Shown here piece by piece: positions 4,726-54,728 of a stretch of 64,000 bases of DNA. Within the stretch, counting starts at the first letter, position 1; every line of letters begins with the position of its first letter. Origin of the DNA: a virus (Duplodnaviria > Caudoviricetes); the IMG/VR virus record IMGVR_UViG_3300036987_000202, positions 7,253-71,252 of that record, one strand, 5' to 3'. A model generated the notes under the pieces. It worked only from the letters and a program-made list of their open reading frames with translations, was not told the origin of the DNA and did not search any database. The translations under genes were made by a program, and so were the position numbers.

Positions 4726-5847
4726 TTAATATTTATTCAGGTAGGCGCTTAATGCTAGGTGCTTTGAACACATCCATAATGATCCCTTGATCATGCCGAC
4801 CTGGGTGGACGTGCGGGGAATACAATAGATGGTCCCGTTTGGATGCAGCACACCACCTGAGTAGGGATTGGCACCATCACTATCCACTTCCGAGAGTATG
4901 CGTTCCGCGGTGTTCAAAAGAGGGTCAATCACCAGCACATCGTTGTTTGCAGATGAACCGATCATGCAGTATATCCGACCATCGGGTCCAAGCACCCCAC
5001 CCGTCCAGTTGGGGTTTGCGGTACTTACTCCATAATCAGCCAGGGATCGACGGGTGAGTGTGCCCGCGAGAGGATCTAAAATGATCACACCATTAGAGGA
5101 ATTTGGAACGCTGTATATTTTTCCATCAGGCCCGAGTACGCCGCCCTGGTTTCCCGAGAGGGTGCCCCCATACCCAAAAGTGCTTTCTGTGGCTGTGTCG
5201 GTAGTGGGATCGATCACCAGGATAGTGTTTTTACTGGCAGGCATCCCATAGATTTTACCGTCAGGCCCAAGCACGCCGCCCATCCACTTGCCAGTCCCGG
5301 TCATCGTCAGCCCCATGGTTGACCTGGCGGCGGTGCCTGCGGTGGGGTTAATAATGAGAAAGTTATTTGAATTATACGGGATGCAATATATTTTTCCGTT
5401 GGCCGCAACCACGCCCCCTGCCCATTTCAAATAATCCGAGAGGGTGGCCCCCATGTTACTCGTTGTGGCGGTGCCCGCCACGGGGTCAACAATGAGAATT
5501 ACATCGGAATAATGCGGAATGCCATATATTTTTCCGTTATGTCCGAGTACGCCCCCCCAATATGAGCTATCACCATTTATCGTCGCCCCCATCGAATTTC
5601 TGATTGCGGTATTGGTGAACGGGTCGATAATCAGCATTTGTGTATCGGTAAACGGCATACAATATATCTTATTATCGGGTCCAAGCACTCCACCGTGGTA
5701 TTTTTCGCCAGTGCCAAAACTTATTCCAAAGGCAGATTTCCGGCCACGCGGATGGTCACCATTGGGACCAAGCGCATACTCCCTTAAATAGTTACGCATC
5801 GCGTTAAAATGCGGTTTCCAGGTGCTTGTCCAGACTTCGCCCGCCAT
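4726..5847 (-). CDS. 7-repeat beta-propeller protein A, paralog of B
   Basis: Same repeat seven times, same length (373 aa), matching termini (WKPHF/WKPYF; LSAYLNKY/LSAFVNKF). Confidence 0.75.
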   Translation of the reverse strand: MAGEVWTSTWKPHFNAMRNYLREYALGPNGDHPRGRKSAFGISFGTGEKYHGGVLGPDNKIYCMPFTDTQMLIIDPFTNTAIRNSMGATINGDSSYWGGVLGHNGKIYGIPHYSDVILIVDPVAGTATTSNMGATLSDYLKWAGGVVAANGKIYCIPYNSNNFLIINPTAGTAARSTMGLTMTGTGKWMGGVLGPDGKIYGMPASKNTILVIDPTTDTATESTFGYGGTLSGNQGGVLGPDGKIYSVPNSSNGVIILDPLAGTLTRRSLADYGVSTANPNWTGGVLGPDGRIYCMIGSSANNDVLVIDPLLNTAERILSEVDSDGANPYSGGVLHPNGTIYCIPRTSTQVGMIKGSLWMCSKHLALSAYLNKY

Positions 5848-5857
5848 GGGTCACTCC

Positions 5858-7909
5858 TTATGGTAAACTCATCCAGGATATCGTCGGCAATGGGCTGCCC
5901 TTGTGCGTGCCATCGGTATTGTGATCTACGTTCAGCCAATCCGAGAGTGACCGGCCAACCTCATGTAAAAAGATTGAACGACTGTCCACATTTACGATGG
6001 GGAGCAGCGTGTTGAACTCCAGGTAGTATGTGGCAATCGTCATGCCCGAGGGAAACTTGACTCTCCCGTTCACCACGTCGATGCCGATATGGTTGTAATA
6101 CTCCCAATTCGTCCAGGTGGTGTCGTTGCTGAAATCGACCGCCATAATATCCAGACCCGAGGACCAGAATCCCGTGTCATCACCAGGGGCATGCACCGGA
6201 ACCAAGCGCGTGCCCGACTCGGTGAGAATGTTCACCACACTGGCTCCGCTGGACGATCCATAGAGGCCCGCCTGTGGCTTATACATCTCACGGAAAGCGA
6301 TGGTCGTGCCGTTACTGCCCAGGACTGGTGTGGCCCCCGAGGTGAAACCGATCACATAGGCGTGATAGTGATAGGTTTGACCCGCCACCAGGGTTGCCGT
6401 AATGTCTGCATACTTCCAGGACGCATCAGCAAAGTCAGCGATGGCGATATCAATGGACCCGAGAGAGTTATTGCCCGCGTCATGCAAGACGATCCTTAAG
6501 TGTGTGTAGCCAGATCCCTTGGTCTTTACATACAACCCGACTCGATTGTGGGTCGTGGCAAATAACAGGCCCGTTGATACCGTAAACGGGGCGCGGTCTG
6601 CTGTGTCCTCGCTCAAGGTGGTGAGCACGCTGTAATTTGATGAGGTGGTTTCCTGCTTCTGGTCCAGGCGGGATACAGGGTACTGCTGCTCCTGCTGGAA
6701 GCGCTCCAGCGAGGCACCGATGTCATTGGTCAGATTGACCGGGAACAGGCTCACCAGGCCCCGGCGGTTGGTAGCGTCACCTGTGACGGGTAAAATGCGG
6801 GCATAGGCCCCTCGGTATTTATTGAGTTTTTGTGCGGTCTTGCTGCGGGCGTCAGAGGAAAGATGGACCCATTCCACACATCCATCAGGATGATCCAGGG
6901 GGAGCGCGGTGCGGTGGTCGCTGTAGCGCGGCAGGGTGGCTACCGTGGTTGATTCGCTGGTCCAGGTGGCGCGGTCGTCGAGATCCTTGACGTTCGACGG
7001 CAAAAGCGAGGTGGCGTTCACCGGCACCGTGACCTCGGCAACCTTGAACCACTTGTTTTCCCCGAGGTACTCGAGGCGATACCCGGCATAGCCAGTGACG
7101 CCCAGGATAAGCTCCGCGGCATCGAGTTGCTCCTGGGCGGGCTGGCGCAGGTAGACCACGGAGTTTTCCCCCAGGCCGGGGGCCGTGATCTTGAGGTGGT
7201 TGGATCCGTCGTTGGACGCGAGGACGCCGATCCCCGCGACATTGATTTTGTTAATGATTTCCGCCAGGGTGGTCGTTGCAGGGACAGCGCCGCGGCAATC
7301 GATTTCCACGAACTCTCCGTCAACTCCGCAGGCCAGGGTTAAAAGATACCTGGTCGTAAAATTGAGCGGGCTTGATACGGCAACCGTCCCCGTGATGCTT
7401 CCTGCCGTTGCCGCGGTAGTGGTGGGGACGCTTCCTCCGGCGGTGCCTTTTTTCACCCGCAGCACCAGGTAGACCTCGCTGTCGCGCTTCCTGGTAACCG
7501 GGGTGACTGTTTTCTCACGGGCGTCGGCAATATAGACCAGGTTGTCGTTTTTGGTGTCCCTCCTGGATATACGCGCTTCCACGATATCGTACCGCTGCTG
7601 GGCCTCCCCCGCGTCGAAGGTAAGGGAGTAATTAGACCCCGCGTTGTAATCCAGACAGAATTTCAGGGTGTCATCCGTGAGCATCTGGACCACCGAGGCC
7701 GGTGCGGTGAAGGGCACGGTCAGGGTGGCGATGGTGCCCTTGCGCAGCCCCTCCAGGACCGCGGCATCGACCGAGGCATTTTTATATAACATGCCGCGAA
7801 TCAGGACCTCCAGGTCCCGCAGGGCCATCTCCCCTATCCGTGTCACCACAAGGTCGTGCTCCAGGCGGGCCTTGGCGGTTTGATTGACGATGCGCAGGTT
7901 CTTACCCAT
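5858..7909 (-). CDS. Tail fibre / baseplate-attached fibre protein
   Basis: 683 aa, Thr/Ala/Gly-rich, follows wedge genes; VTVPVNATSLLPSNVKD segment and C-terminal DHNTDGTH motif. Confidence 0.65.
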   Translation of the reverse strand: MGKNLRIVNQTAKARLEHDLVVTRIGEMALRDLEVLIRGMLYKNASVDAAVLEGLRKGTIATLTVPFTAPASVVQMLTDDTLKFCLDYNAGSNYSLTFDAGEAQQRYDIVEARISRRDTKNDNLVYIADAREKTVTPVTRKRDSEVYLVLRVKKGTAGGSVPTTTAATAGSITGTVAVSSPLNFTTRYLLTLACGVDGEFVEIDCRGAVPATTTLAEIINKINVAGIGVLASNDGSNHLKITAPGLGENSVVYLRQPAQEQLDAAELILGVTGYAGYRLEYLGENKWFKVAEVTVPVNATSLLPSNVKDLDDRATWTSESTTVATLPRYSDHRTALPLDHPDGCVEWVHLSSDARSKTAQKLNKYRGAYARILPVTGDATNRRGLVSLFPVNLTNDIGASLERFQQEQQYPVSRLDQKQETTSSNYSVLTTLSEDTADRAPFTVSTGLLFATTHNRVGLYVKTKGSGYTHLRIVLHDAGNNSLGSIDIAIADFADASWKYADITATLVAGQTYHYHAYVIGFTSGATPVLGSNGTTIAFREMYKPQAGLYGSSSGASVVNILTESGTRLVPVHAPGDDTGFWSSGLDIMAVDFSNDTTWTNWEYYNHIGIDVVNGRVKFPSGMTIATYYLEFNTLLPIVNVDSRSIFLHEVGRSLSDWLNVDHNTDGTHKGSPLPTISWMSLP

Positions 7910-7924
7910 GGTGCGCTCCTATCG

Positions 7925-8067
7925 AAAGAGTGATACCCACGACTTTTTCACCGGGGGCGTTGGCTTTTCTGGAAAGCTCGCCAGCGCGGGATCGTCGTGG
8001 AGCCGAACATCACGCTCGGCTTGTACACGCTTTTACTCTGCGGTGCTGTGTACATAATTGTCAATAC
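7925..8067 (-). promoter_or_regulatory. Structured non-coding leader upstream of the tail-fibre gene
   Basis: Stems at 8022-28/8048-54, 8001-08/8014-21 and 7937-43/7994-8000; preceded by GTATTGAC (8060-67). Confidence 0.45.
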
Positions 8068-8100
8068 TCCGTGTTTCACAATAGACTATTCAGTAGTCAG

Positions 8101-8757
8101 TTATGGAGTGATTTCATCCTGGGTTACAATTAATGTATAATCAACTCCCGCCACAACCAAGCGATCCAGGAGATCGAGCACCAGGGGGATGCTGGTATTG
8201 GGGGTGTTCTCCAGGAGTACGGTGATGGAATATATGCTCCCCGCCAAGGCCATGGTGACGGCAGGGAATACCCATTCATCGCGCATAACCGGTGACACCA
8301 CCTGGAACTCGGTATAGACATCTGAAAAAGATTGATCGGCGTAGGCGGAACCTTCCTGACCTTCATAAAGAAGTGGCCGGTTGGGGAACGAATACGGGAC
8401 CAAAGCATTGATGATCGCTGTGGGAGATACTTTATGACCCAGGATGATTTCCGTCACCCGGCGCTGGTAATCGGCGTCACTCTCCCCGCTCCCGCGCACG
8501 ATACCCAGGTGATCGGACACGATCATCGATAGAAACACGCCCTGGGCGGTGTCGAAAAAGAGCATCTTGATCAACGACTTGGTGAGCCTCCGGTTCCATT
8601 CCACCACCGAGGCCAGCGCCCCCATGTTGAGGTCCATCGGGGTGGAAATCACCGGGGCCGGGACGCCGGTATAATCGGCAATCAGCGACCGATATACGGG
8701 GTCGTTTTTACTGAATACCGCGGCGAGGTCCTTGTTGATCTGATCGACTATTTTCAT
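8101..8757 (-). CDS. Baseplate wedge protein (P2 gpI-like position)
   Basis: RGSGESDADYQRRV motif; directly follows the J-like gene. Confidence 0.65.
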   Translation of the reverse strand: MKIVDQINKDLAAVFSKNDPVYRSLIADYTGVPAPVISTPMDLNMGALASVVEWNRRLTKSLIKMLFFDTAQGVFLSMIVSDHLGIVRGSGESDADYQRRVTEIILGHKVSPTAIINALVPYSFPNRPLLYEGQEGSAYADQSFSDVYTEFQVVSPVMRDEWVFPAVTMALAGSIYSITVLLENTPNTSIPLVLDLLDRLVVAGVDYTLIVTQDEITP

Positions 8758-8760
8758 GGT

Positions 8761-10182
8761 CTACTCCGTGACGGTGACAATGGTAACGGTTATCAGCCCG
8801 CCCGTTCCCGATCCCGTCCTGGCGACGTAGTTGCTGCTGATGGGGATGTTCACCGAGGGACTGGTGATTGCAACATCGTAGACCGCCAGGTGCGCCTTCT
8901 TTGCCAGCATGATGATCTCTGACAGGATTACGTCCTGGCCCAGGCCCCGGGTGTTGATGTACTGCTCGATGGCGGAGCGCACCGCCAGGCTGATTTCCGT
9001 GGCATCCGAATTTTCCCCCTGCCGGTAGACGGTAATGCTCATGTTGACCGGAGACACCTGGGGCGCATCGACGTTGGTGAGTATCCCCGCGGCTCGGTAG
9101 CCCGGGTAGTTCACGATATCAAAAGGGTCGCCATCGAGGACCTTTTTAATGAGGTCCTTCATGTCATCGGAGAGCTGGCCGGTGCCGTCATCGGCCACGA
9201 TGGTATTGTAGCCGGGAACCGGATGGCGTTCCCGCACGGTGACTGATTTAATGCCGGTGATCCCGAGGACCGCGGCTTCCTGGCCCTTTTTCGTGGATCC
9301 CGCGAGGCCCTGGACATAGACCTGGAAGCGATACGCACGTTCGGCGTCGGTTTCCTCATTCTGCCCGTTGGCAAAGGCGCTGTCGTTGATGACATACTCG
9401 ATGCCCTGGAGTGCGGTATTGAGTACGCCCTTGCCATGGCGCGTATCGATGGCATGAGCGTTGATGTTTCCGATGATGCCTGGGGATATACACTGTGCTA
9501 ACAGGGGACCCGTGTGCGCTTTCCCGGCGGGAATAGACCCGTTGGCGGCGACCTGGTAGGTGATGTTATCCAGGGTGATGCTGACACCCGCCATGACGGG
9601 CTGTGACGCCAGGGCAGGCCCCAGGAGCAGATCGATGCCAAAGTTGTTCAGGTAATCCCGTTGGCCGACCATTTCCATGGTGGCATAGCGATAGAGCAGA
9701 TTGGACGCGCTACTTCCAAATTGCACCAGGGATGCCTGGTAGGACGCATGAGCGTCTATCGCCGTCACTAGCTCGGCAATCGTAGGATAGGTCGTGAAAT
9801 TAAGGGAAAGATCATCCCCTATCGCTCCCGTGACCGTGATCGTCAGGGTGGTGTCGCTGACCGAGAGCTTGGCGGAGCTTCCCAGGCCCGTGTAGCGTAC
9901 CGTACAGGTGGGGATCCGGTAAAAGCGGAGATGCCCGCTGGAAAAGCTGGCGCCTTTCTTCTTGAAATTGAATCCATCATAGAGCGCAATCGGAATACTG
10001 CGGCGTAGCGCTTCAAGGTAGTCAAAACCCGTCATGGACTCAACGCGGAATACCGCCTCCAGGATGGACCTGGTAGCCGATCCCTCGTTGAAATCGGTCA
10101 GCCCCACCTCGTCGGCTATAATCTTGTTTTTCGCCAGTTCGACGAGCTGTTCCGGCGTGTGGACTTTCAGTATTTCAGCCAT
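8761..10182 (-). CDS. Baseplate J-like wedge protein
   Basis: DFNEGSATRSILEA; G.NEETDAERAYRF...G; YRAAGI motifs. Confidence 0.85.
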   Translation of the reverse strand: MAEILKVHTPEQLVELAKNKIIADEVGLTDFNEGSATRSILEAVFRVESMTGFDYLEALRRSIPIALYDGFNFKKKGASFSSGHLRFYRIPTCTVRYTGLGSSAKLSVSDTTLTITVTGAIGDDLSLNFTTYPTIAELVTAIDAHASYQASLVQFGSSASNLLYRYATMEMVGQRDYLNNFGIDLLLGPALASQPVMAGVSITLDNITYQVAANGSIPAGKAHTGPLLAQCISPGIIGNINAHAIDTRHGKGVLNTALQGIEYVINDSAFANGQNEETDAERAYRFQVYVQGLAGSTKKGQEAAVLGITGIKSVTVRERHPVPGYNTIVADDGTGQLSDDMKDLIKKVLDGDPFDIVNYPGYRAAGILTNVDAPQVSPVNMSITVYRQGENSDATEISLAVRSAIEQYINTRGLGQDVILSEIIMLAKKAHLAVYDVAITSPSVNIPISSNYVARTGSGTGGLITVTIVTVTE

Positions 10183-45170: not shown

Positions 45171-45271
45171 GTGCCGCCACTCACCCGATCTACCATTGAA
45201 TTGTGCTTGATTTTTCTTTTATGAACTTCTATCAAAGATCAGTTATTATATACTTAAATGGGTGGTTCCGA

Positions 45272-48200
45272 ATGTCATTTGCCAAGATACTTGAAAAGTA
45301 CCGCAAATTATCTTTCTCCGAGAGAGACAAGGGTGATCGCTTTGAAAGACTCATGCAGGCATATCTCCAGACAGACCTGAAATATGCATATCTATTTAAT
45401 AAAGTATGGTTATGGAGCGAGTTCCCCAGCAGAGATGATCTTGGGGGAACCGATATCGGCATAGATTTAGTCGCACAGACAACCGAAGGTCATTATTGGG
45501 CAATTCAATGTAAATGCTTCCAGGAAACCACTTATATAGACAAACCAGCCGTTGACACATTCCTTTCAACCTCAAGCAAAGAGTTTAGGGATGACGCCGG
45601 AAAAAAAACACGTTTTTCTCACCGCCTCTGGATATCAACGACAAACAAATGGGGAAGCAATGCGACAGAGGCTATCACAAACCAGCATCCCCCCGTTACC
45701 AGGCTCAATTTGTATGACTTACAGGAATCCGCGGTAGATTGGGAAAAACTCGATAAGGGTATTACCGGGGATAAGTCACGGATCGCTAAAAAGACCATCA
45801 AGCCCCATCAAAAAGAAGCCGTCGATAAAACACGCGAGTATTTTAAAAATGCAGACCGCGGGAAACTAATAATGGCCTGCGGCACCGGGAAAACATTTAC
45901 CGCATTGAGAATTGCCGAAAACGAGACAGGCGGGAAAGGGTTTATCCTGTTTTTGGTACCCTCGATAGCCCTGATGGGTCAAATGTTACGAGAGTGGACC
46001 GCGGATGCAATCGAGCCAATTCATGCTATTTGCATTTGTTCCGATCCCGCCGTTTCCAGGAAGAAATCGAAGGTCGAAGATACTGACAGCTTCAGCGTTG
46101 TTGATTTGGCCCTCCCCGCCTCTACCGATGTCAAATCCATAGTATCTCAGCTTACTAAAGCGAAATCATCCGGCATGACCGTCGTATTTTCAACCTATCA
46201 GTCGATAGATGTTATTGCACAGGCACAGAAAGAACTCCTCAAGGGGAATAAACCCTTGGGAGAGTTTGATCTGATAATCTGTGATGAGGCCCATAGAACT
46301 ACTGGCGTATCCCTTACCAGTGAGGATTCATCTGCTTTTATAAAGGTCCACGACAATAAGTATTTAAGGGGGAAGAAGCGTATTTACATGACGGCAACCC
46401 CTCGCCTGTATAGCGATGATGCCAAAAGCAAAGCGGCCCAGGCAGAGGCCATTTTATGCTCCATGGATGATGAATCCCTCTACGGTCAGGAAATATACCG
46501 GATCGGGTTCGGTGAATCCGTTGAAAGGGACTTGTTGACCGACTACAAGGTCCTTATTCTCACCCTGAACGACAGGGATGTGCCCCCGGCAATCCAGAAA
46601 ATGATATCCGATAAAAACAGCGAAATCGATACCGATGATGCCTCCAAACTTATCGGCTGTATAAATGCCCTTTCAAAACAAATACTCGGGGATGAGGGAG
46701 TCATTAAAGAAAACGATCCCGAGCCGATGAAACGAGCGGTTGCGTTTTGTCCAAAGATCGTAGTTTCCAAGAAAATAACAGCCACATTCAATACTGCCAC
46801 CAGCGCGTACATTGATTCCTTACCGCCGGATAAGAAAGAAAAGATGGTTTCTGTTTCATCCAAGCACATCGATGGAACCATGAACGCCCCCGAAAGGGAT
46901 GAACTGCTTGGCTGGCTCAAAGAAGAACAGGACGATGAGTGTCGCATTTTAACCAATGTTCGCTGTCTCAGCGAGGGTGTTGACGTGCCCTCTCTCGATG
47001 CGGTGATGTTCCTCTCTGCAAGAAACTCCCAGGTCGATGTCGTGCAATCTGTTGGCCGGGTCATGCGGAAATCCCCAGGAAAGAAGTACGGCTACATCAT
47101 TATTCCCGTGCTCATCCCCTCTCATATTGCACCCGACAAGGCCCTGGACGATAACGAACGCTATAAGGTAGTCTGGACCGTCCTTAACGCTCTCCGTGCC
47201 CACGATGACCGTTTTAACGCCACGGTAAACAAGATTGAACTGAATAAAAAGCGGCCCGATCAGATATTGGTAGGTCGTACCGAATATTCCTATGATGATA
47301 ATGGCAATCCGGTATCCAACAATGTCGATAATCTCAAGTCCGATTACGGCTCTGCAATCAGCAACCAGCTTTATTTGCAATTTGAGCAGCTCCAGGGGGT
47401 CGTTTTTGCCCGCATGGTGCAGAAAGTGGGTGACCGCCGCTATTGGGAGCAATGGGCAAAAAGCGTTGCGGATATAGCGGATAAACAACTGGATCGCATT
47501 GATCGTCTGATTAAAACAGACGGAAGCCATAAAAAGGCTTTTGAAAATTTCTTGCTGGGCCTCCAAAAGAATATCAATCCCAGCATAACCCATAATGAAG
47601 CAGTTGAAATGCTCTCCCAGCATATCATCACAAAGCCGGTGTTTGAGGCACTATTTGACGGGTATTCTTTCGTCAAAAGCAATGCGATATCCGTATCCAT
47701 GCAAACCATGCTTGACCTCCTGGAAGCCCAGGCAGTCGAAAAAGATACTTTTATCCTCGATAAGTTTTATGATTCCGTCCGAAAACGGGCATCCGGTATT
47801 GATAATGCCGAGGGAAAGCAGCGGATCATCATAGAACTGTACGACAAGTTTTTTAAGGCTGCGTTTCCCAAAATGGTGGAGCGGCTGGGAATCGTCTATA
47901 CTCCCGTCGAGGTAGTTGATTTCATTATTCACTCGGTCAATGATGTGCTCCAAAAGGAGTTTGGACGCACTATCTCCGATGAAAACATCCATATCCTCGA
48001 CCCCTTTACTGGTACGGGAACCTTCATCACCAGGCTATTACAGAGCGGCTTGATCGACAAAAAGGACTTTAAACGAAAGTATCACAAAGAAATCCACGCC
48101 AATGAGATCGTCCTCCTGGCCTATTATATCGCCGCGGTTAATATCGAAAGTGCATATCACGATCTCCTGGGGGACGGCAAGGAATACCAGAGCTTCGACG

Positions 48201-50134
48201 GTATTTGTCTTACTGACACCTTCCAGCTTGGGGAGACACCCGACAGCGAAAAGCTCTTTTCAGAGATGTTTCCGCAGAACTCCGAGCGGGTTGCGGCTCA
48301 AAAGAAAGCCCCTATCCGGGTTATTATTGGGAATCCTCCTTACTCTGTAGGGCAAAAGTCGGCTAATGATAATGCTCAAAACCAGAGCTACCTGAGACTT
48401 GAACAGAGGATTGCCGACACATACGCCAAGGAGACAGATGCTACCAATAAAAACTCTCTCTACGATACCTACATCAAAGCCTTTCGTTGGGCATCAGATC
48501 GGCTTGAAAAGCAAAACGGTGGTATTATCTGCTTTGTATCAAATGGCTCATGGATCGATGGTAATGCCCAGGATGGTTTTCGTAAATGTATCGAGAGGGA
48601 ATTTTCAGCAGTTTATGTTTTCAACACAAGGGGTAATGCCAGAACACAGGGGGAATTGAGAAGAAAGGAGGCCGGTAATGTTTTTGGTGGTGGTTCACGA
48701 ACTCCGATTTCAATTACTCTGTTAGTAAAAAATCCAAAAGCCAAGACTGATAAAGCCACCATCAATTACTATGATATAGGCGATTATTTAAACCGTGAAG
48801 AAAAGCTCGACATATTAAGGAAGCACCATTCCATCTCAAATCCGGGAATAAACTGGAGTACCATCGTCCCCAATGAGCACGGGGATTGGATAAGCATGAG
48901 AAATGATGCGTTTGAATTCTTTATTCCGCTTGAACCAGAAAAAAAGTATGAATTACATCCTTCTTGTTTTTTCATACTTAACTCAAGGGGAAATGAGTCA
49001 ACAAGGGACTCATGGGTTTATAATTCATCAAAAAATGTACTGCTCCATAATATGAAATCAATGATTGAATATTATAATCAACAAGTGGATACTTTTTCAA
49101 TAGCACGGCATAAGAATCCAAACATAACTACAGACCAAATTATTAGTACCGACAGTACAAAAATCAGTTGGTCGAGCAGTTTGATTTCACATTTAGAAAA
49201 GTGTAACCATGCAAAGTTTGAAAAAAATAAAATCGATTATAGCATTTATCGCCCTTTTTATAAACAATTTTTATACCGTGGAGAAAAGATTATTCACCGG
49301 CGTGGTCAACATGACTCAATTTATCCAAATTCGTCTATTAACAACCTATCAATCTGCGTTTCAGGGGTCGGTGTCACTAACGATTTTTCAGCTATTGTTA
49401 CCGATACCCTTCCAGATTTAGAATTGATTGGAAAATCACAATGCTTCCCCCTCTATTATTACGAGGAGCGCTCCGACCACAATCCCTCTCTTTTTGATGC
49501 GGAAACCGAAGGAAAATTCATCAGGTATGATGGCGTGACCGACTTTATCCTGGATCGTGCAAAGAAACAGTACGGCAAGAACGTCACCAAGGAAGATATC
49601 TTCTACTACGTCTACGGCTTCCTCCATAGCCCGGAATACAGGATCACCTTTGCAAATGACCTGAAAAAGATGCTCCCCAGGCTCCCCCTGGTCGATGATC
49701 CCAAGGATTTCTGGAAATTCAGTAAAGCCGGTCGGGAGCTTGCCGACCTCCATATCAACTACGAGAGGGTCAAACCCTACCCCGGTGTTAAAGTGACCGG
49801 CGATGATGGTAAATCCTATCTCGTCGAGAAAATACGCTTTCCGGCCAAGGATAAAAAGGACACCATCCTCTATAATAGCCGAATCACGGTGTCAGACATA
49901 CCCGATAAAGCCTATGAATACGTCGTCAATGGCAGGAGCGCAATCGAATGGATCATGGAGCGTTACCAGGTCAAGGTTGACAAGGACAGCGGCATCAAAA
50001 ATGACCCGAACGATTGGGCCAAGGAAGTAAGCAATCCGCGGTATATCCTTGATCTGCTGTTAAGCATAATCACTGTCAGCGTCAAGACGGTGGAAATTGT
50101 GAGCGGGCTGCCGAAGTTGAAATTTGATTCTTAA
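45272..50134 (+). CDS. Type ISP restriction-modification enzyme (LlaGI/LlaBIII-like)
   Basis: Mrr-like DIGIDLV...IQCK; helicase MACGTGKT, DEAH, SEGVDVP; MTase LDPFTGTG, GNPPY; C-terminal TRD; probable start MSFAK at 45272. Confidence 0.92.
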   Translation: MSFAKILEKYRKLSFSERDKGDRFERLMQAYLQTDLKYAYLFNKVWLWSEFPSRDDLGGTDIGIDLVAQTTEGHYWAIQCKCFQETTYIDKPAVDTFLSTSSKEFRDDAGKKTRFSHRLWISTTNKWGSNATEAITNQHPPVTRLNLYDLQESAVDWEKLDKGITGDKSRIAKKTIKPHQKEAVDKTREYFKNADRGKLIMACGTGKTFTALRIAENETGGKGFILFLVPSIALMGQMLREWTADAIEPIHAICICSDPAVSRKKSKVEDTDSFSVVDLALPASTDVKSIVSQLTKAKSSGMTVVFSTYQSIDVIAQAQKELLKGNKPLGEFDLIICDEAHRTTGVSLTSEDSSAFIKVHDNKYLRGKKRIYMTATPRLYSDDAKSKAAQAEAILCSMDDESLYGQEIYRIGFGESVERDLLTDYKVLILTLNDRDVPPAIQKMISDKNSEIDTDDASKLIGCINALSKQILGDEGVIKENDPEPMKRAVAFCPKIVVSKKITATFNTATSAYIDSLPPDKKEKMVSVSSKHIDGTMNAPERDELLGWLKEEQDDECRILTNVRCLSEGVDVPSLDAVMFLSARNSQVDVVQSVGRVMRKSPGKKYGYIIIPVLIPSHIAPDKALDDNERYKVVWTVLNALRAHDDRFNATVNKIELNKKRPDQILVGRTEYSYDDNGNPVSNNVDNLKSDYGSAISNQLYLQFEQLQGVVFARMVQKVGDRRYWEQWAKSVADIADKQLDRIDRLIKTDGSHKKAFENFLLGLQKNINPSITHNEAVEMLSQHIITKPVFEALFDGYSFVKSNAISVSMQTMLDLLEAQAVEKDTFILDKFYDSVRKRASGIDNAEGKQRIIIELYDKFFKAAFPKMVERLGIVYTPVEVVDFIIHSVNDVLQKEFGRTISDENIHILDPFTGTGTFITRLLQSGLIDKKDFKRKYHKEIHANEIVLLAYYIAAVNIESAYHDLLGDGKEYQSFDGICLTDTFQLGETPDSEKLFSEMFPQNSERVAAQKKAPIRVIIGNPPYSVGQKSANDNAQNQSYLRLEQRIADTYAKETDATNKNSLYDTYIKAFRWASDRLEKQNGGIICFVSNGSWIDGNAQDGFRKCIEREFSAVYVFNTRGNARTQGELRRKEAGNVFGGGSRTPISITLLVKNPKAKTDKATINYYDIGDYLNREEKLDILRKHHSISNPGINWSTIVPNEHGDWISMRNDAFEFFIPLEPEKKYELHPSCFFILNSRGNESTRDSWVYNSSKNVLLHNMKSMIEYYNQQVDTFSIARHKNPNITTDQIISTDSTKISWSSSLISHLEKCNHAKFEKNKIDYSIYRPFYKQFLYRGEKIIHRRGQHDSIYPNSSINNLSICVSGVGVTNDFSAIVTDTLPDLELIGKSQCFPLYYYEERSDHNPSLFDAETEGKFIRYDGVTDFILDRAKKQYGKNVTKEDIFYYVYGFLHSPEYRITFANDLKKMLPRLPLVDDPKDFWKFSKAGRELADLHINYERVKPYPGVKVTGDDGKSYLVEKIRFPAKDKKDTILYNSRITVSDIPDKAYEYVVNGRSAIEWIMERYQVKVDKDSGIKNDPNDWAKEVSNPRYILDLLLSIITVSVKTVEIVSGLPKLKFDS

Positions 50135-50218
50135 ACGATAATCCAATGTCAAAGATAATCCAAGATTTAGCTATATTATTTATCGCTTATTTCTCCCAGA
50201 ATTAATGCGAAGTTATTA

Positions 50219-50254
50219 CGGGTATGTTTAGTTATATGCCATTGCCCCGCCCCT
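50219..50254 (+). other. Left recombination site of the cassette array (attI-like or half site)
   Basis: CGGGTATGTTTA-GTTATATGCC; 50231-53 is the reverse complement (1 mismatch) of the end of cassette 1 (51890-912). Confidence 0.6.
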
Positions 50255-50321
50255 TGTGGGAATGAAATATTTTTGCAAAATAACCGGCATCCGTGCCGGA
50301 TGTAATAGAAGAAATAGATAA

Positions 50322-51239
50322 ATGAATTATATAATAATATCAAACTATTATCCAGAACATGACTATGATATTAGTGATGGTCAATTATTAAGAGTGGTAA
50401 AAAACCCTTATAATATTGATAATTATAAAAATGGCAAGCTAACTCCATTAAATGGTCAAATCTGGAATTATTTAATAACAATATCAGATTCCTTTGATGA
50501 TTTAAGAGATTTGATCTTTTTCCATACCTTTATAACAAATAATAGTCAAACTTATCATTATGCAGAAAATTCAAATAAGCTATCATTTGAAGATGAAGAA
50601 CTTGAATTTGTTAAAGATAGGAGTTTAATTATTGATGGAGGTCTTATACATATTGTTGATTTTAATAAATTTCCACTTTTAATGAATTGTAATCAAATTC
50701 TAGAAGAACATAAAATTTTTAAATTTATAGATTATGGTAAAAGTTTTAAAAAGTTTCTCGAATTAAAGAATGTAAAATTAAATGGAATGTCTTCAAAGTA
50801 TAATTTATATGATTTGATATGTTTATATGTTTTTGCAAAAAATTTTGAAATAACCCATAGATTATATAGAAATTCAAATATACCACTTTCATTTTATATA
50901 ACTATATTAGAAGCATTAATTGGTGAGCCTGCAAGCTGTAATTCTCCATTGCATTGTAATGAATGTGAAACAAATATTTCTCGTCATTATAAAATTACAT
51001 TAGAGAAACATTTTACTCAATATTTTAATCAATTTAAAAAGATTAGAAAGATTAGACATTCAACCTTTCATGGTGGCAGTTCTTTTGATTCTATGAAATA
51101 TTTATCAGATTTGCTTAATAGTAATTCAAATTGGGATAATGATAAAAAATATCTTCTTTACCAACATAACCGTGAAGAAATTGAATGTGTTATACGAATA
51201 TTATTAACTAGCGAATTATATAATTATTGCCAGAATTAA
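50322..51239 (+). CDS. HEPN-domain protein (ApeA-like), candidate RNase
   Basis: YITILEALIG...C..C insertion...IRKIRHSTFHGG (R-x4-H). Confidence 0.65.
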   Translation: MNYIIISNYYPEHDYDISDGQLLRVVKNPYNIDNYKNGKLTPLNGQIWNYLITISDSFDDLRDLIFFHTFITNNSQTYHYAENSNKLSFEDEELEFVKDRSLIIDGGLIHIVDFNKFPLLMNCNQILEEHKIFKFIDYGKSFKKFLELKNVKLNGMSSKYNLYDLICLYVFAKNFEITHRLYRNSNIPLSFYITILEALIGEPASCNSPLHCNECETNISRHYKITLEKHFTQYFNQFKKIRKIRHSTFHGGSSFDSMKYLSDLLNSNSNWDNDKKYLLYQHNREEIECVIRILLTSELYNYCQN

Positions 51240-51322
51240 TAATATAATATTATTTATATATGCTATCCAAGCTCAATATCGTATTTGTTTAAATTAATTT
51301 ACACTCAACAAAGAGGAATTGT

Positions 51323-51790
51323 ATGAATAAAATAATAATAATTGTTGGTCTACCTGGCTCAGGAAAAACAACCTTTTTAAATTCCGAATTCGGAAATCAT
51401 GATAATCTCATAATCTTTGATGATTACAAAGCTAGTGCAGTTCTTAATTGCTCAGATTTTACTTACAGTAAGAATTACCCAGAATTAATAAATCAAATTT
51501 GTAGCGCAGAAAAGGACATCGTCATTTCCGATATTTCATTTTGCAATTTTGAATCCTTCATTCAAAGTAAAGAAATTATTGAATGGTGGATTGAACAATC
51601 AAATAATAATTATATTATAAGGATTATAATTTTCGAGAATGATCCGGAAAAATGTATTGAAAACGTAAAGAAAGACACCAAAAAGAGAAACGTTGATGAT
51701 AGAATTAATAAAATTAAAGAATTTAGCCCGAACTTTTTTCCTAAAAAATATATAATTGATGGTGAAATACAATCGATAGGCGGCATTTAA
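51323..51790 (+). CDS. Small P-loop NTPase/kinase
   Basis: IIIVGLPGSGKTT Walker A; IFDD. Confidence 0.75.
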   Translation: MNKIIIIVGLPGSGKTTFLNSEFGNHDNLIIFDDYKASAVLNCSDFTYSKNYPELINQICSAEKDIVISDISFCNFESFIQSKEIIEWWIEQSNNNYIIRIIIFENDPEKCIENVKKDTKKRNVDDRINKIKEFSPNFFPKKYIIDGEIQSIGGI

Positions 51791-51903
51791 TTTGGAATCA
51801 AACTTAAGCATATGAAATGATTATTCAATTTATATAAATCAATGTAAATATTTCAAGCTCAACATCCTGTTTCGCTTGAAAACTTAACGGGGGCGGGGCA
51901 ACG

Positions 51904-52003
51904 GCATATAACAAAGCATATAAGCTGCGCTCCCTGCGGTCGCTTGGCCTTCGGCACATTGCGGCAAAAGGCCGCCGCAACGTCTTATATGCTTGAAACG
52001 TTA
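51904..52003 (+). repeat. attC-like site of cassette 1, interrupted by the intron in its R' core
   Basis: GCATATAAC-AAA-GCATATAAG...CTTATATGC-TTGAAAC-GTTA; removing the intron restores GTTAGGC (GTTRRRY). Confidence 0.8.
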
Positions 52004-52668
52004 GTGCGCCAAGCACAGCTTGGCGCCTCTAGCGGGGTGAAAGTCCCCGTCGGGTAAGGGCTAGCCACCCACCCGTACCGAGTGTTGCGTGATAGCCGGT
52101 AACGGTGACACGAAGCGTACACAGGGTACCATATAGGCCGCAGGGGAGACCGCACTCCCTGAAGCACATTGAGCCCCGTAATAATGGGCCTCGTTAAAAC
52201 GGGGAATACGCGGACGGCGATGTTTTTAACGTACCAGAAGCCAACATGGCGGTAGACGATATGGCAAGACTACCGTTGGTCCGTCGGGGTCAGAGAACGC
52301 GGCATGTATGGAGAGAGGCGTCAGGAACTTGGGAGACCCTGCTCGCTCCTGTGAAAGCAGGTAGGTCTATCCAATCGAAACAGAGGACGACTGATGGCGG
52401 GTGGGGAGTCGGATCAGCCCATACTACTCCGAGGACGGGAAAGCCGGCCACATGGGGAAGGGGCTGACGGAAATACGTAGTCCACAAAGGAAACCTGTAC
52501 CGGACATGCAGGACTGGATACTACAGAAAAACCTCACTGAGGAGAATAGCAAAGTCCTTCGATTTAGAAGGATTGCGGAAGCGAGTATTCTCGAAGAGCC
52601 CGGTGCGGTAATTCCGCACGCCGGGATCTGTGCGGGGGCCGCCGGGCAACCGGCGGTTCTACCGTGAC
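52004..52668 (+). ncRNA. Group II intron ribozyme without a functional RT ORF (665 nt)
   Basis: 5' GTGCG; domain V GAGCCCGGTGCGGTAATTCCGCACGCCGGGATC (52596-628) with AGC triad and AC bulge; domain VI with bulged A; 3' ...GTGAC. Confidence 0.9.
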
Positions 52669-52781
52669 GGCGCCATGTTTTTGTAACTATTTTCAGTTTT
52701 TGACATCTAAATAAATTGTTAATTGACAAAATTATTATCTAATCAATAATTCAGTCATTCTCCAACATACATGGGCATATA

Positions 52782-53528
52782 ATGAAAATTGTACAAATTC
52801 ATGCTGCGATAAATTTTAAAATTGAACCCGATATATTATTATCTGTTGGAAACAATATTAAAAAACTTCAAAAAGAAGTTAAAGTAAATGTTCAAATACT
52901 GAATGTACCTAAAGCTTCCCCACCAGAGACACCTAGAATTGTTATCTTTTCTCCAAATGCGATTATTAATATTTGCTTAAGCAGATATGATATTATTGTT
53001 AAAATTCCAAAACAGATAGAAGATAATATTGATTCTTCTTTAGATTATGCAAAAAATGTAATTACAAAATTTATTCCTTTTTTAATTCATGAGAATTTCC
53101 AATATTTATGGACAGGTATTGTTATAAATTCAGAAAAAGCTTTCGATATTAAAAATAGTAAATCGATTGAACTTATGACTCCATTTTATGATAAGCTAAT
53201 AAATATTGATCGGAACAATATGAAATTATCTTCTTTTCAGTTACAATTTGGTTTTGAGGAAAATAATTTATATAAAAACTATACCATTTCTGGATATGAT
53301 AAAATTAATATAGCGATTCCAGGTAATATTATTGGAGAAAGTTCAATCACTATTGATTTGCAGAAAGCGAAAATTTCTGAGTCTGGTTTACAAGTTATTG
53401 TAGATGTTAACAATAGAACAAATATTAATGTCTTAGGCATCGATCAAGATTTTATTAATCTTTTACATGAAGTAAGTAATACATATAAATTATTACCTAA
53501 TACTCTCAACATTGAAGGATTAATATGA
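52782..53528 (+). CDS. Cassette-2 protein 1 (TIGR04255-like, tentative)
   Basis: 248 aa; PPETPRIV and VIVDVNN features recalled for this family; first of three coupled genes. Confidence 0.45.
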   Translation: MKIVQIHAAINFKIEPDILLSVGNNIKKLQKEVKVNVQILNVPKASPPETPRIVIFSPNAIINICLSRYDIIVKIPKQIEDNIDSSLDYAKNVITKFIPFLIHENFQYLWTGIVINSEKAFDIKNSKSIELMTPFYDKLINIDRNNMKLSSFQLQFGFEENNLYKNYTISGYDKINIAIPGNIIGESSITIDLQKAKISESGLQVIVDVNNRTNINVLGIDQDFINLLHEVSNTYKLLPNTLNIEGLI

Positions 53529-53899
53529 AACAATCTTATGCGACTAAAATACCAACTACTGCACCTCAGACTCCAATTTTTGATTTTTCAAGTTTTGAAA
53601 GATTTCAAGAATCAAAAACAAATGATGATGTTTCAAATGAAATAATTAATATTATTCTTAATAACGATAAATTTGAAGCTTATGTTAAGGATATGATCGA
53701 AGGTATTATATTTAACCAGTGGACAAAGCGAATGACATCTGTTACTGCAATATCAGATGATCCTTTTGATGCTATTTACATTGCAGATTTAAAACCTGAT
53801 TTCATCCATAAAAAGTATATTGAAACCCTTAAATATCATGCTTTAAATATAATTGATAAATCACACGAATTAATCATTGATGATGGCTGGGATGATTAA
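53525..53899 (+). CDS. Cassette-2 protein 2, acidic hypothetical
   Basis: 124 aa, overlaps the upstream stop, acidic C-terminus IIDDGWDD. Confidence 0.6.
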   Translation: MKQSYATKIPTTAPQTPIFDFSSFERFQESKTNDDVSNEIINIILNNDKFEAYVKDMIEGIIFNQWTKRMTSVTAISDDPFDAIYIADLKPDFIHKKYIETLKYHALNIIDKSHELIIDDGWDD

Positions 53900-54439
53900 A
53901 TGTATTTAGATAATTCAAAATTTGAAAAAGACATTTTAAGACAGGGTGACATTATAAAAAATGTCCTACTATTAGGTGCTATTAATTTAAACGGGATACA
54001 ATACAATATTGACCAACAGGGGAATAAGAAAGGGTGGACAGTATCACAACAACCTAAATTTTCTGAAGCAATTGTACTTTCTCACTCTTGTGAAATTGAT
54101 ACTAGTAATAGAATAAAATTAACAAGTATTATTCTTGCTCCTTTAAGGGATATCAATAAAGCAACCGCTAAAACCACAATAGATGAATTAAAAAGTAGTA
54201 ATATTATTAATTCAGATACTAAATTTAGTTTCTTAAAATACTTTTATATAGAGCCTAATTCATTTTTAACATATCCCGATGGTGCTATCATTGATTTTTC
54301 TAAATGTTTCAGTGTAAAAAAAGAATCATACAATAACCTTTTAACAAATAAAATTCTCTCCCTAACAAATGAAGCAGCTGATTGTATGGCTCTTAAATTT
54401 GGGTTATACTTTTATCGTAACACCCTTCACGTCGCATAA
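53900..54439 (+). CDS. Cassette-2 protein 3, possible toxin-like protein
   Basis: LRQGDII...IVLSHSCEID...IIDFSK motifs; starts right after the upstream stop. Confidence 0.5.
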   Translation: MYLDNSKFEKDILRQGDIIKNVLLLGAINLNGIQYNIDQQGNKKGWTVSQQPKFSEAIVLSHSCEIDTSNRIKLTSIILAPLRDINKATAKTTIDELKSSNIINSDTKFSFLKYFYIEPNSFLTYPDGAIIDFSKCFSVKKESYNNLLTNKILSLTNEAADCMALKFGLYFYRNTLHVA

Positions 54440-54444
54440 TAATA

Positions 54445-54510
54445 CAAAAACACGGCGCCCAACTAAGCATACCCGCTTCGTCGCTGCACTCCTCGGCCTT
54501 CGGAAAATCG
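54445..54510 (+). repeat. Truncated attC-like site of cassette 2 (5' half only)
   Basis: AAAAACACGGCGCCCAAC is complementary to the restored cassette start GTTA/GGCGCCATGTTTTT; CTCGGCCTTCGG matches attC1; 3' arm missing. Confidence 0.65.
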
Positions 54511-54728
54511 CCCAGGACTGCATCAGTCCATTATCCAGAATGGTATAATGGTGTTTTGCCATGTCCTAGGGGCGTGGCCGGGCGCAGGGGTCCAGGTCAA
54601 ACTCTCCTAAGACTGCCAGGATATCCGGTAGGGTCAGCCACTCATCCTTTCCCATGCGTTGTGATTGATTGATGCCCGCACATGCCGCGGCCAGGTAGTG
54701 CGTCGATATTGAATAGCAGGCTATTCAT
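54510..54728 (-). pseudogene. Phage Dam-like N6-adenine methyltransferase remnant
   Basis: GHQSQRMGKDEWLT.PDIL..LGEFDLDPCA...RP*...HYTILDNGLMQSW; 4-nt duplication frameshift, internal TAG, truncated before NPPY. Confidence 0.75.

Follow-up and report, generated by a model that had tools for sequence, protein, structure and literature searches.

We find that a 64-kb stretch of viral DNA carries an array of integron-type gene cassettes without an integrase. The stretch (hereafter the window) comprises bases 7253-71252 of the IMG/VR contig IMGVR_UViG_3300036987_000202, which is linear, 71,252 bp long, and 79% complete according to CheckV. These are probably mobile cassettes that a temperate, probably plasmid-like phage took from a bacterial array, and that are now left as an integrase-less fragment resembling a CALIN (cluster of attC sites lacking integron integrases). 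An earlier interpretation made from the DNA letters alone (the sequence-only reading) had described two cassettes with complementary ends, one full and one truncated hairpin, and very AT-rich multi-gene cargo, set within a phage head module and lacking an integrase. All of this holds. Both inverted-repeat pairs are present, the second reading from GTTA once an intron is removed, and the two cargoes have a GC content of 0.26-0.30 and hold two and three open reading frames (ORFs), respectively. Each cassette has an AT-rich cargo, on the 3' side of which comes a GC-rich folded site of about 130 nt, the presumed recombination site. The parts are laid out as follows, with positions in the window unless marked as contig positions.

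50219 to 50230, plus strand: 12-nt remnant CGGGTATGTTTA, by direct reading, with which the array starts on the left; it is similar to the 3' part of the 11-bp box in truncated hairpin 2
50231 to 51912, plus strand: cassette 1, two ORFs
50231 to 50253, plus strand: start arm of cassette 1, GTTATATGCC...
51890 to 51912, plus strand: end arm of cassette 1, ...GGCATATAAC
50322 to 51239 and 51323 to 51790, plus strand: cassette 1 ORFs of 305 and 155 amino acids (aa)
51913 to 52003, plus strand: hairpin 1, a complete site core with a perfect 11-bp box (AAGCATATAAG/CTTATATGCTT), from its fold and its alignment with hairpin 3
52001 to 52003 (TTA), then 52669 to 54463, plus strand: cassette 2, interrupted by an intron
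52004 to 52668 (665 nt), plus strand: ORF-less group II intron, inserted after GTTA and sense to the cassette genes
52669 to 52687 and 54443 to 54463, plus strand: start arm and end arm (...GGCGCCCAAC) of cassette 2
52782 to 53528, 53525 to 53899, and 53900 to 54439, plus strand: cassette 2 ORFs of 248, 124, and 179 aa
54464 to about 54511, plus strand: truncated hairpin 2, the 5' half alone, nearly matching the 5' half of hairpin 3
54512 to 54724, minus strand: remnant of a phage DNA methyltransferase gene
contig 1 to 1318: intron B, with a reverse-transcriptase ORF, cut by the contig end
contig 1322 to 1409: hairpin 3, complete, beside cassette 3
contig 1410 to 2468, opposite strand to cassettes 1 and 2: cassette 3, AT-rich, with a 310-aa ORF

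Each of the three cassettes has ends that are complementary across its cargo; across the hairpin there is no such pairing. Cassette 3, which has the same design and turned up when the contig was searched for the intron, sits at the far end of the 71-kb contig. The arms of cassettes 1, 2, and 3 pair at 22, 19, and 21 of 23 positions, respectively, and their sequences differ. End-to-end pairing over 21 bp is kept in every cassette, with at least two Watson-Crick pair types at 14 of the 23 positions. At position 11, every cassette has A facing C, so that the top strand is mismatched there and the bottom strand forms a G.T pair; in cassette 2, pairing is contiguous over positions 5-21 except for this conserved A.C. 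The inverted-repeat pair of cassette 1 covers 50223-50253 and 51890-51920 (31 nt, 90%), and that of cassette 2 covers 52669-52685 and 54443-54459 (17 nt, 94%), where intron removal restores GTTA/GGCGCC (the slash marks the junction), complementary to GGCGCCCAAC ending at 54463. This end pairing is not due to chance. A scan for GTTA...TAAC with at least 15 of 17 complementary flanking bases returned cassette 1 alone in the 64-kb window and cassette 3 in L002, and found nothing in 30 shuffled windows. Note that cassette 2 ends in CAAC, and hence falls outside this count.

Inverted repeats of 21-23 nt at both cargo ends of each cassette would also be expected of non-autonomous transposons with terminal inverted repeats that had landed by chance beside a hairpin repeat. 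We consider this extremely unlikely. The three repeat pairs differ beyond GTTA (cassettes 2 and 3 share about 10 nt), so no single transposase would serve all of them. Furthermore, there is no target-site duplication, the contig has no transposase, and all three cassettes abut the hairpin at exactly the same base.

We reconstructed the sites as they would occur in a circular cassette (end arm, hairpin, G, and TTA plus start arm). Their folding energies are -41 to -51 kcal/mol (z scores of -9 to -11), with the bottom strand at least as stable as the top, and the hybrid site as present in the array retains the inner hairpin alone (-23). Pairing of cognate halves across the cargo is the predicted signature of circle insertion by a site-specific crossover within the shared GTTA. 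Because cassette 3 has a hairpin solely at its 3' end, the crossover would fall 3' of the hairpin, the arrangement known from integrons. The core sites of cassette 3 (GCCTAAC/GTTAGGC) and cassette 2 (GCCCAAC/GTTAGGC) fit RYYYAAC/GTTRRRY, and that of cassette 1 (ATATAAC/GTTATAT) is one off this consensus on each side. The cassettes have cognate site halves at both ends, as a G/TT crossover would leave them and as in integron cassettes.

We infer the following recombination cycle from these structures. In the circular form, 21-23 nt at both ends would pair and extend the hairpin. With the crossover at G/TTA on the 3' side of the hairpin, hairpins within an array would come to lie between non-cognate arms. 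Excision and insertion would be carried out by a host-encoded integron-type tyrosine recombinase via the folded single strand, and the bottom strand would be favored, as a G.T pair there replaces the A.C mismatch at position 11.

One cargo family links the phage array to bacterial cassettes. The genomic context of cargo homologues was followed for the 305-aa protein, via one metagenome scan. This protein has only 13 homologues, and those in the metagenome contigs L091, L092, and L095 are 58-64% identical to it, have 27-30% GC, and occupy single-gene cassettes. These cassettes run from GTTATGT to ACATAAC between ordinary short attC sites, one of which (L095 2644-2706) is recognized at 29 bits by our covariance model R1. 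Since its homologues sit as single-gene cassettes between ordinary attC sites, the 305-aa family is, by its genomic context, a genuine cassette gene, which the phage carries together with a second gene and with another type of site. Scans of viral contigs recovered neither the 305-aa nor the 248-aa family.

The phage sites are not built like canonical attC sites. In the bacterial sites analyzed here, the geometry is constant: TAAC, an unpaired spacer of 2-4 by 3-5 nt, 5-6 bp, a bulge on the 5' arm (mostly G), 4-6 bp, a second 5'-arm bulge, and a variable top, with end complementarity of 8-10 nt. Model R1, which is home-made from 12 canonical attC sites and biased towards Terriglobia, scores canonical sites in nine other loci from several phyla at 15-75 bits. 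The phage sites fail this folded geometry, and several observations count against assigning them to integrons. They have a 21-bp stem outside the core, an extension that canonical sites lack. Their loop is 1 by 4-5 nt with the extra bases on the 3' arm, whereas canonical sites carry them on the 5' arm, and their 11-bp box is perfect, with no bulged base. Model R1 gives hairpin 3 only 11.7 bits (E value 0.06 in 2.8 kb) and does not match hairpin 1. The known set of long-stem sites amounts to two complete sites and one half site, without intI, of which one alone scores marginally with the home-made model. The exact hairpin pattern was not found in viral contigs, the hairpin signature pattern was not found in five intron-host genomes or in 401 sampled Nitrospirota genomes, and hairpin motif searches of all loci retrieved in the analysis were negative. 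As the hairpin family was found nowhere else in these searches, there is no known array of long-stem sites beside a recombinase. Lastly, neither an integron integrase (TIGR02249) nor a tyrosine recombinase (PF00589) is encoded on the 71-kb contig, which is 79% complete.

Other features of the hairpins bear on their kinship. Hairpin 1 has a GC-rich variable top, a 1 × 5 asymmetric loop, and its GTTA core at 52000-52003. Hairpins 1 and 3 differ in the 11-bp box by compensatory changes, and past the box a region, CGCT-G-GCGCTCC, resembles the canonical L-box stem. We read the model R1 outcome as indicating 'not canonical' sites; a score from this model carries no verdict on recombination by IntI. 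The description of the array as integron-like stands in its cognate ends, in its cassette cargo family, and in the attC-core habit of its intron lineage (below); as a claim of strict attC sites it fails, with model scores of at most 11.7 bits. The suggestion that the repeats were of Leptospira type is also unsupported, as none of the collections searched yielded a relative of the hairpin.

These departures could instead point to a distinct integron-like system with another recombinase, for example a small Xer-like tyrosine recombinase, that requires the long, cassette-specific outer stem. Such a system would account for the failure of canonical attC geometry, for the conserved A.C mismatch, which lies one helical turn away from the crossover, for the 21-bp arms in three of three cassettes, and for the different, canonical site type that the same cargo family carries elsewhere. 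We nevertheless consider it unlikely, because the contig lacks any tyrosine recombinase, the cores are the classical GTTRRRY/RYYYAAC, the lineage of the introns sits at canonical attC sites in IntI-bearing genomes, and searches turned up no second locus with long-stem sites. A bolder version, to which we give similarly little credence, makes the long-stem sites a separate branch of gene capture. In that branch, the recombinase would recognize a hairpin of about 130 nt and cleave it 21 bp in from the base, at a distance of one helical turn from a conserved, strand-marking mismatch, and the arms would be footprints of cassette-making around foreign AT-rich genes, possibly coupled to sense-strand introns at the crossover.

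The introns also tie the array to the integrons of bacteria. The ORF-less copy matches Rfam RF02005 at 153 bits (52040-52299) and RF00029 (domains V/VI) at 32 bits, with the latter match ending at 52668, and intron B is 79% identical to it. Both phage introns lie directly after a hairpin at GTTA/ (CGTTA/G), sense to the cassette ORFs. We found the junction of GTTA with the intron 5' end in 84 loci of environmental bacteria (L006-L089), with hosts including Terriglobia, Desulfobacterota, Chromatiaceae, Thiosymbion, Nitrospinota, NC10, and Chloroflexota; among viral contigs, it occurred in none besides this phage. The sequence upstream of the bacterial junctions is usually a recognizable (canonical) attC, and an IntI above the TIGR02249 curated cut-off is encoded in all five intron-host genomes tested. 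In the eight bacterial loci that could be scored for both, the strand of the intron was invariably that of the attC, as determined with a strand-specific model. In the Terriglobia genome G001, the introns lie within a textbook array; they share the strand of the cassette ORFs, intI is located upstream, and the 3' junction restores GTTA/GGCGT, complementary to the far end of the cassette. ORF-less copies of about 700-800 nt are common in bacterial arrays. The intron-encoded protein has less than 45% identity to any plasmid-borne intron protein (best, 44%).

Some further details of this lineage were noted. It is widespread, and its insertion point is GTTA/ within the R' core of attC sites, on the sense strand of the cassette, as also at L090 12969 and 16342. 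Once inserted, the intron has a 5' end (GTGCGCC) that imitates the exon it displaced (GGCGCC), as seen at 52000-52014 in the window and at L002 1322-1308 (minus strand). The intron-bearing core reads GTTAG(T)GCGCC, and could keep its pairing with an end arm of the cassette 2 and 3 type, with one bulged T. In the Terriglobia integron G001:C37 (L090 6726-7736 and 10260-18500), intI is on the same strand as the cassette ORFs, and it is separated from the array by two more recombinase-like ORFs that appear to have been inserted.

The closest described systems are group IIC-attC introns of the S.ma.I2 type (Leon, Quiroga, Centron, Roy 2010, PMC3001079), which are likewise small, use an attC hairpin as the upstream stem-loop, insert in the core region, and commonly occur as ORF-less or truncated copies in arrays. 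Those published introns target TTGT/T on the bottom strand and lie antisense to the cassette genes (PMC3001079, PMC7923331), and sense insertions have been reported only as isolated cases (PMC7923331). In contrast, the present lineage occupies the top strand at GTTA/, in sense orientation.

Introns of this kind have also been proposed to make cassettes. According to the Leon and Roy model, group IIC introns that target hairpins connect genes with recombination sites (summarized in PMC7923331). The phage modules would then be intermediates or products of that process, and their inverted arms by-products rather than recombinase substrates. Both complete hairpins do hold an intron, identically placed and in sense orientation, as splicing from the cargo transcript requires; the join between GC-rich site and AT-rich cargo is abrupt; and in other loci the 305-aa gene comes with another type of site. 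However, the model does not predict cognate inverted arms of 21 nt, and the distal site of cassette 2 has no intron. The lineage sits mostly at ordinary attC sites in mature arrays, so that the phage copies look like secondary colonists. We therefore judge intron-driven formation of these cassettes to be very unlikely. Under the reading we prefer, in which the cassettes come from a bacterial integron-type array, group II introns that target a hairpin plus GTTA would have colonized two of the sites later. One of them would be autonomous, and the other, being ORF-less, would rely on the reverse transcriptase of the first.

How the array reached the phage can be read in part from its right junction. 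Hairpin 2 stops at about 54511, where it is joined to the reverse strand of the methyltransferase remnant. This remnant matches PHROG 111 (profile positions 53-111 of 345, E value 3.6e-10), contains an internal TAG, and represents only the N-terminal third of the gene, which is cut off by the island junction. Because the junction cuts both hairpin 2 and the phage methylase gene, the array arrived or was trimmed by illegitimate recombination with deletion. Integrase-mediated capture of the array into the phage slot is not indicated, and a complete integron, with intI, attI, and the promoter Pc beside the array, is not present on the contig (79% complete). The idea that the phage had captured host integron cassettes is therefore borne out as to the integron-type cassettes that it carries, and not as to site-specific capture. 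We propose that a two-cassette array reached the slot by illegitimate recombination, which would have cut the last hairpin together with the methylase gene, and that the array would now be fixed there, integrase-less and CALIN-like, in an accessory-gene slot. At the left end, the remnant CGGGTATGTTTA is complementary to CATACCCG of hairpin 2, and its alignment to the full hairpins is loose. These 12 nt preceding cassette 1 look as if they might be the missing 3' box half of hairpin 2, an observation to which, with so few bases, we attach low weight.

An integrase-less cassette array in a phage is not in itself new. CALINs have been described in both temperate and virulent phages, with illegitimate or off-target capture proposed as their origin (Qi, Rajabal, Ghaly, Tetu, Gillings 2023, PMC9892861). 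Those sites had been detected by means of attC models, and IntI1 recombined five out of six (PMC9892861). The array described here resembles those CALINs in being co-oriented, in lacking intI, in its location in a phage genome, and in its multi-ORF cassettes and accessory cargo. It differs from them in that its sites fail the canonical attC model, have a 21-bp cassette-specific outer stem and a perfect 11-bp box, carry their unpaired bases on the opposite arm, and are accompanied by group II introns. With sedentary chromosomal integrons (Terriglobia G001:C37 and Vibrio VCR-type), it shares RYYYAAC/GTTRRRY cores, a G/TT crossover 3' of the hairpin, cognate halves at the cassette ends, hairpins that are alike within an array, and one cargo family. 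Unlike those integrons, in which end complementarity is 8-10 nt and bulges are on the 5' arm, the phage sites have a stem that extends 21 bp past the core, with no intI, attI, or Pc.

What appears to be new, judging from the sequences, is a site geometry backed by covariation, one gene family associated with two site types, and a sense-strand intron lineage. Phage-borne cassette arrays provide a route for integron cassettes between bacteria, as already published. As the present sites are built unlike canonical attC sites, with clean covariation evidence for the structural difference, arrays of this type may escape standard integron finders. That one gene family occurs with two site types is relevant to the still unsolved problem of how cassettes are made. 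Finally, an abundant intron lineage inserts in the sense strand at the attC core, whereas the described lineage is antisense.

The cargo is largely uncharacterized. No cargo protein matches a defense family in PADLOC, Pfam, or NCBIfam, so that only their context speaks for the suggestion that these were defense cassettes, and the 305-, 248-, 124-, and 310-aa proteins match no Pfam, NCBIfam, PADLOC, or PHROG family at all. An atlas search of the cargo returned hypothetical clusters only. The 155-aa protein is P-loop kinase-like, with weak matches to AAA_33 and to the PHROG 505 polynucleotide kinase, and the 179-aa protein matches PHROG 4575 alone, a family without an assigned function. The 248-aa family is widespread and uncharacterized, with 147 representative clusters; its structural model is good (predicted local distance difference test, pLDDT, 94) and shows a weak resemblance to a TBP-like fold, with a template modeling (TM) score of about 0.3. 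For the 305-aa protein, the structural model is mediocre (pLDDT 68) and has no Foldseek match, and the idea that it is a HEPN protein was not confirmed.

Within cassette 2, a promoter-like site at 52723-52750 (TTGACA-16-AATAAT) is near consensus, with 11 of 12 matches. Each ORF of cassette 1 is followed by a copy of a 19-nt direct repeat, CAAGCTCAA.ATC.T.TTT (51268-51286 and 51854-51872), and the second copy sits in a small AT-rich hairpin at 51844-51888. Cassette 1 may be a fusion of two older single-gene cassettes, which would fit the single-gene cassettes of its homologues.

The array belongs to a low-GC accessory island that spans about 45200 to 54500 in a phage with a GC content of about 0.57. 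On one side the island is bordered by the portal gene (PF04860, 56633-58351) and two small genes, and on the other by a gene for a 524-aa head-region protein. The remaining neighbors are as follows.

45203 to 50134, plus strand: intact gene for a Type ISP restriction-modification enzyme, left neighbor of the array and member of the same low-GC island
contig 4898 to 5599 and 7659 to 8057 (L097 2599-3300 and 5360-5758), minus strand: ParA-type partition ATPase gene and Gp49/HigB-like toxin gene, in that order

The Type ISP gene (GC 0.42-0.47) has Pfam matches to Type_ISP_C, ISP_coupler, Mrr_cat_2, ResIII, and N6_Mtase, and residues 24-1641 of its 1646-residue product are covered by PADLOC REase_MTase_IIG. 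We rejected it as a 'cassette 0', as the sequence upstream has no GTTA-type border. The stretch from its stop codon to cassette 1 aligns only loosely to a hairpin.

Beside cassette 3 lie the genes for the ParA-type ATPase (AAA_31/CbiA) and the Gp49/HigB-like toxin. The phage may be maintained as a plasmid (a plasmid-like prophage), which would fit these two genes and the integrase-free contig. Circular closure of the contig at intron B was considered and rejected, as the opposite contig end has neither a maturase domain nor domain V/VI. The closest introns, about 70% identical, are from Nitrospinota and Nitrospirota, and the single named relative of the portal protein is from a metagenome-assembled genome of Nitrospiraceae (53%), support that we considered too weak to name a host.

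The island is a variable accessory-gene slot within the head gene block. We read it as variable because a distant relative, L096 (IMGVR_UViG_3300018080_000191), has unrelated accessory genes between homologues of both flanking genes. In that phage, the same slot (7205-10019) holds genes for an RNA ligase and an RlaP-type nucleotidyltransferase along with a radical SAM gene, which together make up an RNA-repair-like accessory set.

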